Positions 5,394 to 20,007 of a stretch of DNA of 64,000 nt are shown here, one piece after another (the first letter of the stretch is position 1; each line of letters starts with the position of its first letter). The stretch is from a virus (taxonomy: Duplodnaviria; Caudoviricetes). Location: the IMG/VR virus record IMGVR_UViG_3300028833_000053; one strand, 5' to 3'. Below the pieces are notes generated by a model. The model was given only the letters and a program-made list of their open reading frames with translations, was not told the origin of the DNA and searched no databases. Position numbers and translations under genes: made by a program.

Positions 5394-5440
5394 AAACCCC
5401 CTTTACTTTGGAAACCGGATGTGATATACTGTGTGTGTTC
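5394..5440 (+). promoter_or_regulatory. Sigma70-type promoter P1 of the tRNA operon
   Basis: AAACCCC-TTTACT-17 nt-TATACT with TG extension. Confidence 0.7.
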
Positions 5441-5679: not shown

Positions 5680-5754
5680 CACGGTGTAGCAAAATGGTCT
5701 TGCAACGGACTTTTAATCCGTGAGATGCGGGTTCGAGTCCCGTCACCGTGACCA
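5680..5754 (+). tRNA. tRNA-Lys(TTT)
   Basis: Cloverleaf, CACGGTG/CACCGTG, loop CT-TTT-AA, CCA. Confidence 0.9.
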
Positions 5755-5795
5755 AATCAAGTGAAACGCCTAAAAACTTTTTTCAGAATTTTCCG

Positions 5796-5842
5796 AAACC
5801 CCCTTGCTTTTGGGGAACGGATATGGTATACTGTGTGTGTTG
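5796..5842 (+). promoter_or_regulatory. Sigma70-type promoter P2
   Basis: AAACCCCC-TTGCTT-17 nt-TATACT. Confidence 0.7.
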
Positions 5843-5878
5843 ACGCGAAACAAGGTTTCCACGCGAAACAAGGTTTCC
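5843..5878 (+). repeat. Perfect 18-bp tandem duplication in the P2 leader
   Basis: ACGCGAAACAAGGTTTCC x2. Confidence 0.9.
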
Positions 5879-5925
5879 ATCAACGCCGCTCTTTGAAGGT
5901 TGCGCGAGCAACCGGCAAGAACAAA

Positions 5926-5944
5926 GCTCTTTGACAACTGAATG
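5926..5944 (+). promoter_or_regulatory. boxA-like element 2
   Basis: GCTCTTTGACAACTGAATG. Confidence 0.6.
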
Positions 5945-6116
5945 ATTCAATGTAGGAAAGACTGTTCCGCTTGGCGGAACATTCATCACGCAAGTCACCC
6001 CTTGGAGGAAACTCATAAGAGAACCTTGGGTCTAGCGCGGATGGTTCTACGATTTCAAACGATTCTTAAATTGGGCCGAAGCATCGGGCCCAAGCCAACG
6101 CGAGGCGATCAGTCCT

Positions 6117-6178
6117 TATCCACTGGCGTGGTTGCATACGAATGTGTGCAATGCGGGTTCGACTCCTGCGGTGGGATA
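6117..6178 (+). ncRNA. D-armless tRNA-like mini-RNA
   Basis: Acceptor-like stem, one hairpin, T-arm GCGGG-TTCGACT-CCTGC. Confidence 0.5.
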
Positions 6179-6197
6179 GATGCTCCAATTTCAAGAT

Positions 6198-6273
6198 TGC
6201 GGGACGGTGCATCGGTTGCATATCGGGTTCATACCCCGAAGATGGTTGGGTTCGACTCCCACTCCCGCTACCA
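6198..6273 (+). tRNA. Initiator tRNA-Met(CAT)
   Basis: 1:72 mismatch, GGG/CCC anticodon stem, CCA. Confidence 0.85.
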
Positions 6274-6787
6274 ATTTGGAATGACGACGTGAAGTTCTCT
6301 GGCAAGAGACGCGAACATACTGGACCGATAGTTCCCCAGAACGGGTCAAAGTTCATGATACTGAAGGTATGGGCGTTCCAATTCCATTTGAATCAAAGGT
6401 AAGGCGAATTTGCTCTGTGGTGTAAGCAAACACACCTCCTGACAATAGGAGGAATTGGCCTGCGATTGGTCTGGAGCAACCGTGGTATGAAAAATCCACA
6501 CCTCATATTAAAGGACAAAACGTCATTTGGAGTAATTGACCAGTTGGCGCCGAGAATATGATAGATTGCCTTTGAGAACGACCTTTCAAGGTCGTAAAGA
6601 ACGACCTTTTCAATTTGCGCAAAAGCCCAGACGTGGGCAAGGTTGTACGGTGAAGTACGTTATACCTGCGTTATAAAGGACATGAGCATCCGGACGATGC
6701 CGCCCCGAGAGTAAAATGGGGAAAGACCAGGGGTTCAACTCCCACATGTCCCAGCGAAATTTCAAATTGGTTGCGTTGCGCAACCTT

Positions 6788-6867
6788 GACGCGAATGGAA
6801 GCTGAAGAAGGTTTGAAATCGTAAGTTCAAATAGCGTTCAGCCCTTGGTCCGATTCCAAGGCGCGTC
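6788..6867 (+). ncRNA. D-armless tRNA-like mini-RNA
   Basis: GACGCG/CGCGTC stem, GCTGAA/TTCAGC helix, T-arm CTTGG-TCCGATT-CCAAG. Confidence 0.5.
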
Positions 6868-6881
6868 TTTACAATTTAGAT

Positions 6882-6969
6882 TCGGCAATACCCGAGTTGG
6901 TAGCAGGGGAGGGACTGTTAATCCCTTGGCGAAAGCCCGTCGCTGGTTCGAGTCCAGCTTGCCGAGCCA
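6882..6969 (+). tRNA. tRNA-Asn(GTT) with a long variable arm
   Basis: Loop CT-GTT-AA, V-arm GGC-GAAA-GCC, G73, CCA. Confidence 0.85.
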
Positions 6970-6976
6970 TTTCAAT

Positions 6977-7052
6977 GCTCCAGTAGCTCAATCGGCAGAG
7001 CATGGGACTCTTAATCCCGGGGTTGTGGGTCCGATTCCCACCTGGAGTACCA
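6977..7052 (+). tRNA. tRNA-Lys(CTT)
   Basis: Cloverleaf, CCA. Confidence 0.9.
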
Positions 7053-7057
7053 ATTTC

Positions 7058-7143
7058 CTTGCTGTTGCTGTTGGTTCAAATCCAACCTGGTCTGAAAGGC
7101 ATTGCCAGGACCGGAAAGCGATGCGATTGGTTTCAACAGCGGG
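7058..7143 (+). ncRNA. Circularly permuted tRNA-like RNA (YrlA/Y-RNA-like topology)
   Basis: Terminal 10-bp stem enclosing a T-arm, a loop-closed acceptor-like stem and a D-like arm, in that order. Confidence 0.45.
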
Positions 7144-7326
7144 ATTCTTTTCTTCAAACATTGAACGCCACACCTTTCGTATTAGTGGCTAGTACGCCCC
7201 GTGGCAGACGGGGAGAGGTTGGTTCGAGTCCAACAAGGTTAAAGCTGGCTTTCAATGTTTCGCGCCTTGCATCGGGCGCAGGTTGGCAAGGTGCGTGTTC
7301 TAGTTCGCGCAGTCCCAACTGAAACG

Positions 7327-7381
7327 TCCATATACGGCCTGAGTGATGATCACCACTCGTGGGTTCAACTCCCACTATGGA
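7327..7381 (+). ncRNA. D-armless tRNA-like mini-RNA
   Basis: TCCATA/TATGGA stem, one hairpin, T-arm GTGGG-TTCAACT-CCCAC. Confidence 0.5.
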
Positions 7382-7403
7382 AGTAGATGCGGCCTTTCTA
7401 AAT

Positions 7404-7482
7404 GGTTCCGTAGACCAATTTTGGCAGAGTCACATGCTTGAGGTGCATGACAGTATGGGTTCGAGTCCCATCGGAACTACCA
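7404..7482 (+). tRNA. tRNA-Leu(GAG), short variable loop
   Basis: Cloverleaf, CCA. Confidence 0.85.
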
Positions 7483-7484
7483 AT

Positions 7485-7561
7485 GGATGCGTAGCCCAAC
7501 GGCAGGAGGCAAATGACTCAAAATCATTACAGTGTGGGTCCGAATCCCACCGCATCTACCA
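7485..7561 (+). tRNA. tRNA-Leu(CAA), short variable loop
   Basis: Cloverleaf, CCA. Confidence 0.85.
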
Positions 7562-7570
7562 TTTCAAACT

Positions 7571-7649
7571 GGTGGCGTAGCCCAATTTGGCAGGAGGCAG
7601 CGGTTTCAAACTCCGCGTAGTATGGGTTCGAGTCCCTTCGCCACTACCA
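7571..7649 (+). tRNA. tRNA-Leu(CAA), second copy with a U31-U39 mismatch
   Basis: Leu-type D-loop, loop TT-CAA-AC, CCA. Confidence 0.7.
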
Positions 7650-7667
7650 CTTTGTATAATTGGATGT

Positions 7668-7958
7668 ATGGAAAACGATATTGTTCTTGACTTCATACAT
7701 CGCAGGTTTCCAGACGATTGCCGTTGGCTCAATGGAAACTGCTACTTCTTCGCGTTGATTCTCCGCGAACGTTTCCCATGCGGGAAAATCCTCTATGATG
7801 TCATAGACGGGCATTTCGTTTGCGAGATTGATGGAAAGAAGTACGATTGGTCTGGAATCGTGAATGAATCTGGTGAACACCAATGGGTTGAATGGGACAG
7901 ATTCTACGAATACGACAATCTTCAATTTGAACGTGTGGTGAAAGACTGCACGATGTGA
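7668..7958 (+). CDS. Hypothetical protein inside the tRNA array
   Basis: MENDIVLDFI...GNCYFFA...YDWSG; own TATAAT 7 nt upstream. Confidence 0.7.
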   Translation: MENDIVLDFIHRRFPDDCRWLNGNCYFFALILRERFPCGKILYDVIDGHFVCEIDGKKYDWSGIVNESGEHQWVEWDRFYEYDNLQFERVVKDCTM

Positions 7959-7995
7959 AACATCGCATGATGCAGAGCATCACACGTTATGACAT

Positions 7996-8074
7996 GGCGG
8001 TGTAGCCCAACTTGGCAGGAGGCAGCACGTTCAGGGCGTGTGTAGTGTGGGTCCGAATCCCACCATCGCTACCA
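7996..8074 (+). tRNA. tRNA-Leu(CAG), short variable loop
   Basis: Cloverleaf, CCA. Confidence 0.85.
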
Positions 8075-8076
8075 AT

Positions 8077-8154
8077 CAGTGAGTAGCTCAGTCTGGCTAG
8101 AGTGCCGGGCCCGGAACCCGTAGGTCGCAGGTTCAAATCCTGCCTCACTGACCA
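8077..8154 (+). tRNA. tRNA-Pro(CGG)
   Basis: C1-G72, A73, CCA. Confidence 0.85.
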
Positions 8155-8169
8155 TTTTCAATTTCACAA

Positions 8170-8244
8170 GTCGGGATAGCATAATGGTGGTGCTAGGGAA
8201 TCATAATCCCTCGGTTGTGGGTTCGAGTCCCTCTCCCGACACCA
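8170..8244 (+). tRNA. tRNA-Met or Ile2 (CAT)
   Basis: Cloverleaf, CCA. Confidence 0.8.
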
Positions 8245-8253
8245 AATTTCAAT

Positions 8254-8329
8254 TGGAGTATGGCGAAGTGGTTAACGCACTGGTCTGATACACCAGCATA
8301 CGATGGTTCGATCCCATCTACTCCAACCA
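8254..8329 (+). tRNA. tRNA-Ile(GAT)
   Basis: Cloverleaf, CCA. Confidence 0.9.
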
Positions 8330-8339
8330 ATTTTCAAAA

Positions 8340-8427
8340 CGTCAGGTGCAGCTGAGTAGCGAAGGCCTGTGACTGTAAATCACAGACATTGGAAACAACG
8401 TAGGTGCGAGTCCTACCCTGACGACCA
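8340..8427 (+). tRNA. tRNA-Tyr(GTA)
   Basis: Loop CT-GTA-AA, long V-arm, C1-G72, CCA. Confidence 0.85.
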
Positions 8428-8476
8428 ATTTCAAGTAGTTCATTAGATTTACACTGTAAATCTTGTAAATACTATT

Positions 8477-9151
8477 ATGAACTACAATAAGATTTATAAT
8501 GATTTGATTTAGAAGCGAATTGATCATCCTCTTGAACGAACCTATGACGCTTCAATTGAGGAACATCATATTATTCCTCGATCATTTGGTGGTACAAATG
8601 ACAAGACTAATTTGGTCAATCTGACTTTACGAGAACACTTTGTTGCGCATCTCCTTCTATGGCGCATAAACAAAAATGATTATGTGAAATGTGGTAAAAT
8701 GATAAGTGCGTTATTCTTTATGATGAAGAGGGCGCATAAACTATCATCCAGATTATATGAGAAATTGAGAGTAATGGGTGGTTCTTGGAACGGAAGACAC
8801 CATTCTATTGAAGTGCGTGAAAAAATAAGAATGTCAATGACACCATCTGAATCTTCAAATCCCAGAGTTTGGGTATGCAAAAATGGCATGGTAAAATACA
8901 TACCCAAGGAAAAATTGAATGACTTCTTATAGAAGGGGTGGATTAGAGGTAGAATGGGATATAAACCAAGGAAAAATAAATAGGGAACGATAATAGAAGA
9001 TGGCATAACAAAGGCATTCTATAAAACATGTGAAGGTAGGGTTTATATTCATAACGAAATCTTGAAATAGACCAAACGAGTAATAAAAGACGATGTTTCT
9101 GAATTTTAGAGAAGTGGCTGGAAACTCGGAAGAAAAATATACAACAAATAA
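8477..9151 (+). CDS. HNH homing endonuclease, 224 aa with 5 in-frame TAG
   Basis: MNYNKIYNDLI(TAG)KR...EEHHIIPRSFGGTNDKTNLVNLTLREHFVAH; NUMOD3-like GRHHSIE; ends TAA. Confidence 0.85.
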
Positions 9152-9154
9152 TTT

Positions 9155-18467: not shown

Positions 18468-18558
18468 GCTGAGGTCGTATAGTCTGGTCGATTACAATGG
18501 CTTCGTAAGCCATTATGCTTCTGGCATCACGTCAGTTCAAATCTGACCCTCAGCTCCA
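18468..18558 (+). tRNA. tRNA-Thr(CGT) with a long variable arm
   Basis: Loop TT-CGT-AA, V-arm ATGC-TTCTG-GCAT, CCA. Confidence 0.85.
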
Positions 18559-18562
18559 TTTG

Positions 18563-18645
18563 GCTAGGGTGGCTGAGAGACCGAAAGCGCGTCCATGGTA
18601 AGGACGTATTCCACATCGTCAGTTTGAATCTGACCCCTAGCTCCA
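18563..18645 (+). tRNA. tRNA-Thr(GGT)
   Basis: Loop AT-GGT-AA, 11-nt V region, CCA. Confidence 0.85.
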
Positions 18646-20004: not shown

Positions 20005-20007
20005 GCG

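Follow-up and report, generated by a model that had tools for sequence, protein, structure and literature searches.

Two families of non-decoding tRNA-like RNAs in the tRNA array of a huge phage

The DNA analysed here, a stretch of 64,000 nucleotides (nt) from the IMG/VR virus record IMGVR_UViG_3300028833_000053 (hereafter the window), contains an array of transfer RNA (tRNA) genes, and within it lie three elements, E1, E2 and E3, that have the shape of a tRNA and lack the parts with which a tRNA decodes. Their structure is well supported. As at least two of them are kept by selection in related phages, they are probably working mimics and not dead tRNA genes. We propose that E1-E3 are tRNA-derived, non-decoding structured RNAs from a long plus-strand operon transcript, which would act as tRNA-mimic scaffolds of the Y RNA kind, a reading in which we place middling confidence.

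Three elements share one plan

6117-6178, plus strand: E1
6788-6867, plus strand: E2
7327-7381, plus strand: E3

RNAfold predicts the same plan for all three elements, with minimum-free-energy (MFE) and centroid structures in agreement: an acceptor-like stem, a GG-bearing linker of 7-8 nt, a hairpin that abuts the T stem, and a canonical T-arm, directly followed by the 3' strand of the acceptor. The layout given in an initial annotation of this DNA is thereby borne out for E1, E2 and E3. The MFE values are -22.9 kcal/mol for E1, -28.9 kcal/mol for E2 and -18.4 kcal/mol for E3, corresponding to z-scores against dinucleotide shuffles of -1.9, -3.8 and -2.1. All three lack a D stem and an anticodon loop of 7 nt with U33; the unpaired linker stands at the place of the D stem, and the hairpin loops measure 4 nt in E1 and 8 nt in both E2 and E3, with unrelated loops of 5, 8 and 9-11 nt in E3 orthologues. 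Neither ARAGORN nor the Rfam tRNA model (RF00005; threshold 29 bits) calls E1, E2 or E3, even at E<=10, and at this cut-off they are covered by no known Rfam family.

The elements belong to a one-strand (+) tRNA array at 5680-18645, which holds 34 tRNAs called by ARAGORN and about five found by Rfam only (~39 in total). T-arm motifs with a 5-bp stem are concentrated there: of 40 on the array strand genome-wide, 34 lie in the 13-kb array, while the two strands of the genome outside it (~420 kb) have 13 in total, an enrichment of about 150-fold that excludes a chance origin. The strict module of T-arm plus acceptor occurs 25 times on the plus strand of the window and never on the minus strand. 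At least eight array T-arms fall outside called tRNAs (6153, 6844, 7070, 7218, 7359, 9309, 13349 and 17688).

Conservation and covariation of E3

7262-7279, plus strand: hairpin H1 of the E3 unit, stem GCGCC/GGCGC around the loop TTGCATCG
7281-7320, plus strand: variable hairpin H2, GTTGG...CCAAC, in place of which L091, L089 and G002 have unrelated hairpins
7321-7384, plus strand: E3 core, with 5' GAAAC, acceptor TCCATA/TATGGA (7327-7332 with 7376-7381) and linker TACGGCCT
7324-7325 with 7383-7384, plus strand: acceptor extension, pairs A7324-T7384 and C7325-G7383
7341-7358, plus strand: core hairpin GAGTG-8 nt-CACTC
7359-7375, plus strand: T-arm GTGGG-TTCAACT-CCCAC
7385-7397, plus strand: conserved 3' tail, A-GATGC-GGCC-TTT, without CCA

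The source genome, G000, is a complete virus record of 433,895 bp with direct terminal repeats; it carries a T4-type portal gene, and the phage is described as rumen-type. Searches based on the portal and on sequence patterns recovered the complete genomes of two related phages, G001 (418 kb) and G002 (414 kb), together with six distinct metagenome contigs bearing parts of the array. Each complete genome has one copy of E3. Seven relatives were compared with the window. Five of them match it at 96-98% identity in the core and 100% in the tail; the other two, L089 and G002, bear variants, and their identity is 71% in the core and 92-100% in the tail. The surrounding spacers reach 46-65% identity in divergent relatives and the neighbouring tRNA-Lys slot 32-64%. 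E3 is the best-conserved segment of its neighbourhood.

Three variants of E3 are found. Variant A has the acceptor TCCATA/TATGGA and the hairpin GAGTG-8 nt-CACTC. In variant B, from G002, the acceptor reads TCCAAA/TTTGGA, a swap of U-A for A-U, and the hairpin GGGC...GCCC; variant C, from L089, combines the acceptor TCTGAA/TTTGGA, including two G-U pairs, with the hairpin AAATGGCA-GTGAA-TGCCATTT. The 5' RAAAC, the linker GGC, the T-arm and the 3' tail GTAGRTGCGGCCTTT are constant, similarity ends past the tail, and the fold is kept with the hairpin fully replaced. Variant lengths of 77, 79 and 82 nt, with indels between orthologues that are not multiples of three, exclude a coding reading.

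A covariance model of E3 was built from five distinct sequences with our own predicted structure. In the family alignment all 138 of 138 cells are paired and 11 of 18 pairs have changed on both sides, a result matched by none of 500 shuffles; sliding the partners by one to three columns lowered pairing to 34-53%. The H1 stem covaries as well, from GCGCC/GGCGC to GCGTC/GACGC in G001. Two further pairings with the tail, by the linker GGCC (to the tail GGCC) and by a leader GGCU, were considered and rejected, as they are not conserved in relatives. A search of prokaryote genome contigs with the E3 pattern gave no match.

E2 displays an invariant loop

6769-6785, plus strand: upstream hairpin GGTTGC-loop-GCAACC, kept in G001 and L095 with different loops
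6788-6867, plus strand: E2 core, with acceptor GACGCG/CGCGTC, linker AATGGAA and T-arm CCTTGG-TCCGATT-CCAAGG (6843-6861)
6801-6842, plus strand: two-tier hairpin with the invariant 8-nt loop ATCGTAAG (6818-6825)

E2 likewise lacks CCA. Its orthologues in G001 and L095 occupy another place in the array, corresponding to about 15690 of the window; L094 has no E2 at the window's position. The three sequences hardly differ in acceptor and T-arm. Their inner stems are TTTGAA/TTCAAA, GTCTGA/TCAGAC and TCAGA/TCTGA around the invariant AUCGUAAG loop, so that three pairs are changed on both sides among three sequences, and none in slid controls. A pattern search of viral contigs found E2 in G001 only. 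A recurrent CGUAA loop motif tying E2 to other hairpins was rejected for lack of enrichment, as the array has 17 occurrences and the remainder of the window 24, and complements of the E2 loop, as candidate targets, are present at or below chance counts.

Judged by the conservation of E3 and by these substitutions, E2 and E3 are not decaying pseudogenes. The initial annotation had tied its reading to covariation, without which the elements would be decaying pseudo-tRNAs; the stems of E2 and E3 do covary, so that its reading survives on this point.

E1 is a paralogue of E3

6071-6093, plus strand: upstream hairpin H1, TTGGGCC/GGCCCAA around the loop GAAGCATCG, architecture as in the E3 unit
6117-6178, plus strand: E1 core, with acceptor-like TATCCAC/GTGGGATA (one bulged G) and linker TGGCGTGG
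6132-6151, plus strand: core hairpin of 8 bp with a GAAT loop
6153-6169, plus strand: T-arm GCGGG-TTCGACT-CCTGC
6177-6187, plus strand: 3' tail, TAGATGC and then T-CCA (6184-6187), followed by the usual array spacer ATTTCAAG

The whole of E1 is matched by the E3 covariance model (18.9 bits, E~0.007 in 141 kb), which also matches a CCA-less cloverleaf of G002 (22.4 bits; L020:15342-15430, minus strand). In both E1 and E3, TAGATGC comes right after the acceptor and an upstream hairpin bears a GCATCG loop. The order of the unit is common to E1, E3 and the G002 paralogue: H1 with a loop of 8-9 nt, a variable H2, a leader of GAAAY type that has diverged in E1, the tRNA-like domain and a tail starting with TAG. 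By model match and shared unit, E1 and E3 are paralogues and E2 forms a separate family. The three elements had been taken to be unrelated in sequence, which for E1 and E3 no longer holds. The absence of CCA described for all three stands for E2 and E3; E1 has GATGC-T-CCA at 6179-6187, its CCA lying six bases past the end of the core. A 5-nt extension precedes this T-CCA, and L088 has TCA instead of the CCA.

The H1 loop of each unit is complementary to the tail: in E1, GCATC (6081-6085) to GATGC (6179-6183), and in E3, GCATC (7269-7273) to GATGC (7386-7390). The pentamers are thus GCAUC with GAUGC in E1 and E3, and in the G002 paralogue ACACC with GGUGU, which amounts to two double compensatory changes; the E3 of G002 itself has GCAUC with GGUGC, including one wobble. 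Since the complementarity is kept across E1, E3 and the G002 paralogue, we infer a loop/tail pseudoknot that would cap the acceptor end in the E1/E3 family.

Apart from the window, E1 is found only in L088, as a nearly identical copy. The whole block of ~125 nt is missing from L091 and L095, as a clean indel between spacer repeats, and G001 and L094 have other sequence at the site; an exact search of viral contigs for the E1 hairpin gave no match. With two near-identical copies only, E1 gives no covariation evidence. Shortly 5' of the E1 unit lies a block of ~130 nt (5923-6056), 77-86% conserved in all relatives, which contains CTCTTTGACAA; the hairpins after this block covary, and it may be a promoter or a leader element.

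Further tRNA-like elements of the array

6678-6751, plus strand: cloverleaf without CCA, its 'anticodon' loop 11 nt long; orthologues in L091, L094 and L095
7058-7143: permuted, CCA-less tRNA-like RNA of YrlA topology; conservation 79-96% across six relatives, with divergence in G002
7167-7243, plus strand: CCA-less cloverleaf with a variable 'anticodon' loop, on a long covarying leader/trailer helix at about 7156-7260
13290-13372: orphan tRNA-like element, acceptor GGGAGCA/TGCTTCC, T-arm GTGGG-TCCGAAT-CCCAC, no CCA

These four non-decoding tRNA-like elements were absent from the list of the initial annotation. In the first of them the acceptor, D and T stems covary, and the 'anticodon' loop shrinks to 6 nt in L095; the other cloverleaf, at 7167-7243, is likewise conserved with covariation. 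The stems of the permuted element covary too, from TGGTC/GACCG to TGGGC/GCCCG and from GGC/GCC to CTC/GAG. The sole database signal of the orphan is a weak match to the Rfam tmRNA (transfer-messenger RNA) model, and a 15-mer from 7167-7243 has 50 matches, mostly by chance. Looser versions of the E1-E3 plan had been listed near 11160, 16054 and 17606; these are indeed tRNA-like, with architectures that differ from the plan.

The array and its relatives

Sites resembling promoters are found at 5402 and 14960; the earliest strong terminator comes at 20007. CCA is encoded by almost every canonical tRNA of the array, and a TTTCAAT-type leader stands before each. In public phage records similarity to the array is at the tRNA level only, and 20 kb of the window have no megablast match, so there is no annotated relative among them. 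SmpB, a CCA-adding enzyme and RtcB were looked for in the window phage, and none is encoded. All three complete genomes (G000, G001 and G002) have an intact open frame for a TROVE (Ro60) protein, located in the window phage as follows.

G000:C1:~342300-343100, minus strand: TROVE/Ro60 open frame, 577 amino acids, on the same strand as E1, ~13 kb before the window start and ~19 kb from E1

In G001 and G002 a tmRNA gene lies inside the array, between tRNA-Phe and tRNA-Arg(acg) (L019:13261-13596(-) and L020:15538-15870(-)). The syntenic site of the window, 10423-10772, has none, and the one tmRNA of G000 is elsewhere (G000:C1:234921-235286). A tRNA with a CTA anticodon, of amber suppressor type, is encoded far from the array at G000:C1:410487-410576(-).

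Within the array, 11621-12508 is an open reading frame for a homing endonuclease of NUMOD3 type. Because fragments resembling its 5' end occupy other array positions in L089 and L095, they suggest that the endonuclease may have driven reshuffling of the array. The tRNA-Lys(CTT) slot at 6977-7052 is filled in G001 (L019:~15960-16040(-)) by a very divergent tRNA-like gene with a CTT anticodon, called by neither ARAGORN nor Rfam, with flanks near identical to the window. Given the divergent slot and its near-identical flanks, tRNA slots change faster than the adjoining non-tRNA RNAs.

Proposed mode of action and alternatives

On the basis of these results, E1-E3 would retain the coaxial stack of acceptor and T-arm and the elbow of a tRNA, with a canonical T-loop and with the GG-bearing single-stranded linker in place of the D-arm. 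The hairpin without an anticodon loop would occupy the position of D-stem and anticodon arm. Having neither an anticodon loop nor a functional CCA, the elements should be unable to decode or to be charged. Readers of tRNA shape, such as RNase P, enzymes of the TruB/TrmA type and tRNA- or Y-RNA-binding proteins, should still recognise them. In the E1/E3 family the 5' hairpin loop would pair with the 3' tail (GCAUC/GAUGC) and cap the acceptor end, and in the E2 family the tRNA scaffold would display the invariant loop. Candidate partners are the phage's own Ro60 protein, host tRNA-binding proteins, or both. Action as a tRNA mimic of Y RNA type is the leading candidate mechanism, because E1-E3 share the plan of the Yrn1 module discussed below and because G000, G001 and G002 all have the TROVE frame.

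A wider version of the proposal is possible and more tentative. The operon of this clade may encode a whole Y-like set, composed of the pseudoknot-capped E1 and E3, E2, the permuted 7058-7143 and the CCA-less cloverleaves; with the phage Ro60 these would form ribonucleoproteins by which the infecting phage diverts host exoribonucleases or tRNA quality control, and the pseudoknot cap would make a new type of mimic that can be neither charged nor trimmed.

Several points weigh against the main proposal. Each family comprises three to five distinct sequences in alignments fitted to the model, and that of E3 includes paralogues. For E1 there are no informative orthologues, and its fold is not unique, since a competing minimum-energy fold exists for the 121-nt unit. 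The pseudoknot draws on one independent paralogue. Among E1-E3, the Ro60-binding strand motif (GGUCCGA / GNCGAAN0-1G) occurs only in E1, as GGGCCGAAG at 6073-6081, where the H1 loop region reads GCCGAAG and fits GNCGAAN0-1G; this pattern has a background of 0.58 per kb, compatible with chance, and the E1 motif is therefore not significant by itself. The Rfam YrlA model (RF02553), with a gathering score of 69 bits, reaches no more than 22.5 bits anywhere in the genome, and its matches are sub-threshold and of tRNA type. The Ro60 gene lies ~19 kb from E1, compared with 4 kb or less between Ro60 and published YrlA genes (Chen et al. 2014, PMC4201824).

Among the alternatives, E1-E3 could be processing punctuation only, that is, minihelix-plus-elbow modules that mark cuts by RNase P or 3' trimming and free the neighbouring non-tRNA RNAs, with no further role. 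The minimal substrate of RNase P is a stack of acceptor and T-arm with a T-loop. E1-E3 stand between other structured non-tRNA RNAs (7058-7143, 7167-7243, H1 and H2) in what would be one transcription unit, and the YrlA of M. smegmatis is cut by M1 RNA (PMC4201824). Yet genuine tRNAs flanking the region would already punctuate it, and cleavage by RNase P needs neither the invariant E2 loop nor the invariant E3 tail with its matching H1 loop. RNase P is favoured by a 7-bp acceptor stem (PMC4201824), whereas the stems here have 6 bp plus extensions. We regard punctuation as the sole role as unlikely.

It is less probable still that the elements are decoys for host tRNA-binding factors, be it SmpB, anticodon nucleases, tRNA-directed toxins or other defence proteins. 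Their topology is that of a capped tRNA-like domain of tmRNA, and the phage invests heavily in taking over translation, with ~39 array tRNAs, a tmRNA and the CTA suppressor tRNA. However, without an anticodon loop there is nothing for anticodon nucleases to recognise, and without G3:U70 and ACCA the elements are barred from the tmRNA pathway. SmpB in particular fits poorly as a target, as relatives carry a real tmRNA in the same array. The window phage itself does not encode SmpB, and neither a defence nor a toxin context was found.

A little more doubtful again is that E1-E3 are functionless, as decaying pseudo-tRNAs or scars of recombination. This is most plausible for E1, given its occurrence in two near-identical genomes only, the clean indel in L091 and L095 and the other sequence in G001 and L094, and it would suit the fast turnover of tRNA slots and the homing-endonuclease fragments scattered through the arrays. 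Against it, E2 and E3 are under purifying selection and carry compensatory changes, and even E1 retains all features of its family, including the H1 loop, the tail and an intact T-arm. That they are unusual working tRNAs, armless in the mitochondrial style and missed by detectors, is very improbable: other tRNAs here are very divergent and ARAGORN missed the CTT tRNA-like gene of G001, but the elements have no 7-nt loop with U33, and E2 and E3 lack the CCA of nearly all canonical array tRNAs in a phage without a CCA-adding enzyme.

Significance

Huge phages are known for large tRNA sets; what else their tRNA operons contain has, to our knowledge, hardly been annotated. Much of one stretch of the operon described here is filled by conserved RNAs that have the shape of a tRNA and no decoding or charging function, in a phage that also has Ro60. 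Non-coding RNAs that mimic tRNAs are already known as a kind; these families are new. If they act as Y-RNA-like partners or mimic effectors, Y RNA biology of the bacterial type would reach megaphages, and the elements would offer a compact, testable model for a tRNA mimic with a pseudoknot-capped acceptor end. It would also follow that tRNA finders undercount functional tRNA-derived genes in phage genomes. The minimal gain is two new conserved families of structured RNA, with covariance models, for annotating related rumen phages.

Comparison with known systems

The resemblance to the tRNA-like domain of tmRNA (RF00023) pointed out in the initial annotation is real: acceptor strand, single-stranded D-loop analogue, helix, T-arm and acceptor strand follow in the same order. 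The helix of E1-E3 is, however, a capped hairpin and not a P2 leading to the tag reading frame. G3:U70 and ACCA are absent from E1-E3, whose third acceptor pairs are U-A in E1 and C-G in E2 and E3, and RF00023 has no match at their sites. Derivation from the phage's own tmRNA was rejected, its ends being dissimilar to E1-E3.

Plant-virus tRNA-like structures of the turnip yellow mosaic virus and brome mosaic virus type (RF00233) have pseudoknotted acceptor arms, in which a 3' tail pairs with a hairpin loop. The proposed pairing of E1/E3 is similar in joining tail and hairpin loop beside the acceptor helix, and E1 ends in N-CCA after the pairing. In contrast, the pairing hairpin of E1 and E3 lies 5' of the entire tRNA-like domain, and E3 and the G002 paralogue have no CCA. 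The RF00233 model matches none of E1-E3, and its sub-threshold matches overlap canonical tRNAs only. The tRNA gene cluster of phage T4 encodes the small stable RNAs species 1 and 2 (rnaC/rnaD), which are not tRNAs, have no known function and are processed within the cluster; they resemble E1-E3 as non-tRNA RNAs encoded in a phage tRNA cluster.

The YrlA RNAs known from bacteria and mycobacteriophages mimic tRNAs as E1-E3 do, with T-arm and elbow, and Ro60 is encoded by the window phage. YrlA is circularly permuted, with its acceptor closed by a loop and its ends at the anticodon side, whereas the ends of E1-E3 are at the acceptor side; the YrlA topology is fitted better by the neighbour at 7058-7143.

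The tRNA-like module of Yrn1 from Deinococcus radiodurans lacks both a variable (V) arm and a full D arm, keeps features of the D-loop, and has a T arm together with an anticodon-like arm that ends in a 6-nt loop; its orientation is opposite to that of YrlA (PMC4201824), which we read as the terminal stem of the RNA in the acceptor position. E1-E3 follow this plan, with the helix of the ends at the acceptor position, D-loop features without a full D arm, a T arm, no V arm and a single anticodon-like hairpin with a loop of other than 7 nt; the likeness is one of plan and not of homology. Yrn1 also involves tandem T-arm RNAs, and Y RNAs co-transcribed with a tRNA (PMC4201824); here, T-arm RNAs likewise stand in tandem and would share a transcript with a tRNA, and the genome has a Ro60 orthologue. 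E1-E3 differ in having no detectable sequence homology to Yrn1, and E1 and E3 would add a loop/tail pseudoknot not described for it. Compared by architecture, the plan of E1-E3 is closer to the Yrn1 module than to the tRNA-like domain of tmRNA.

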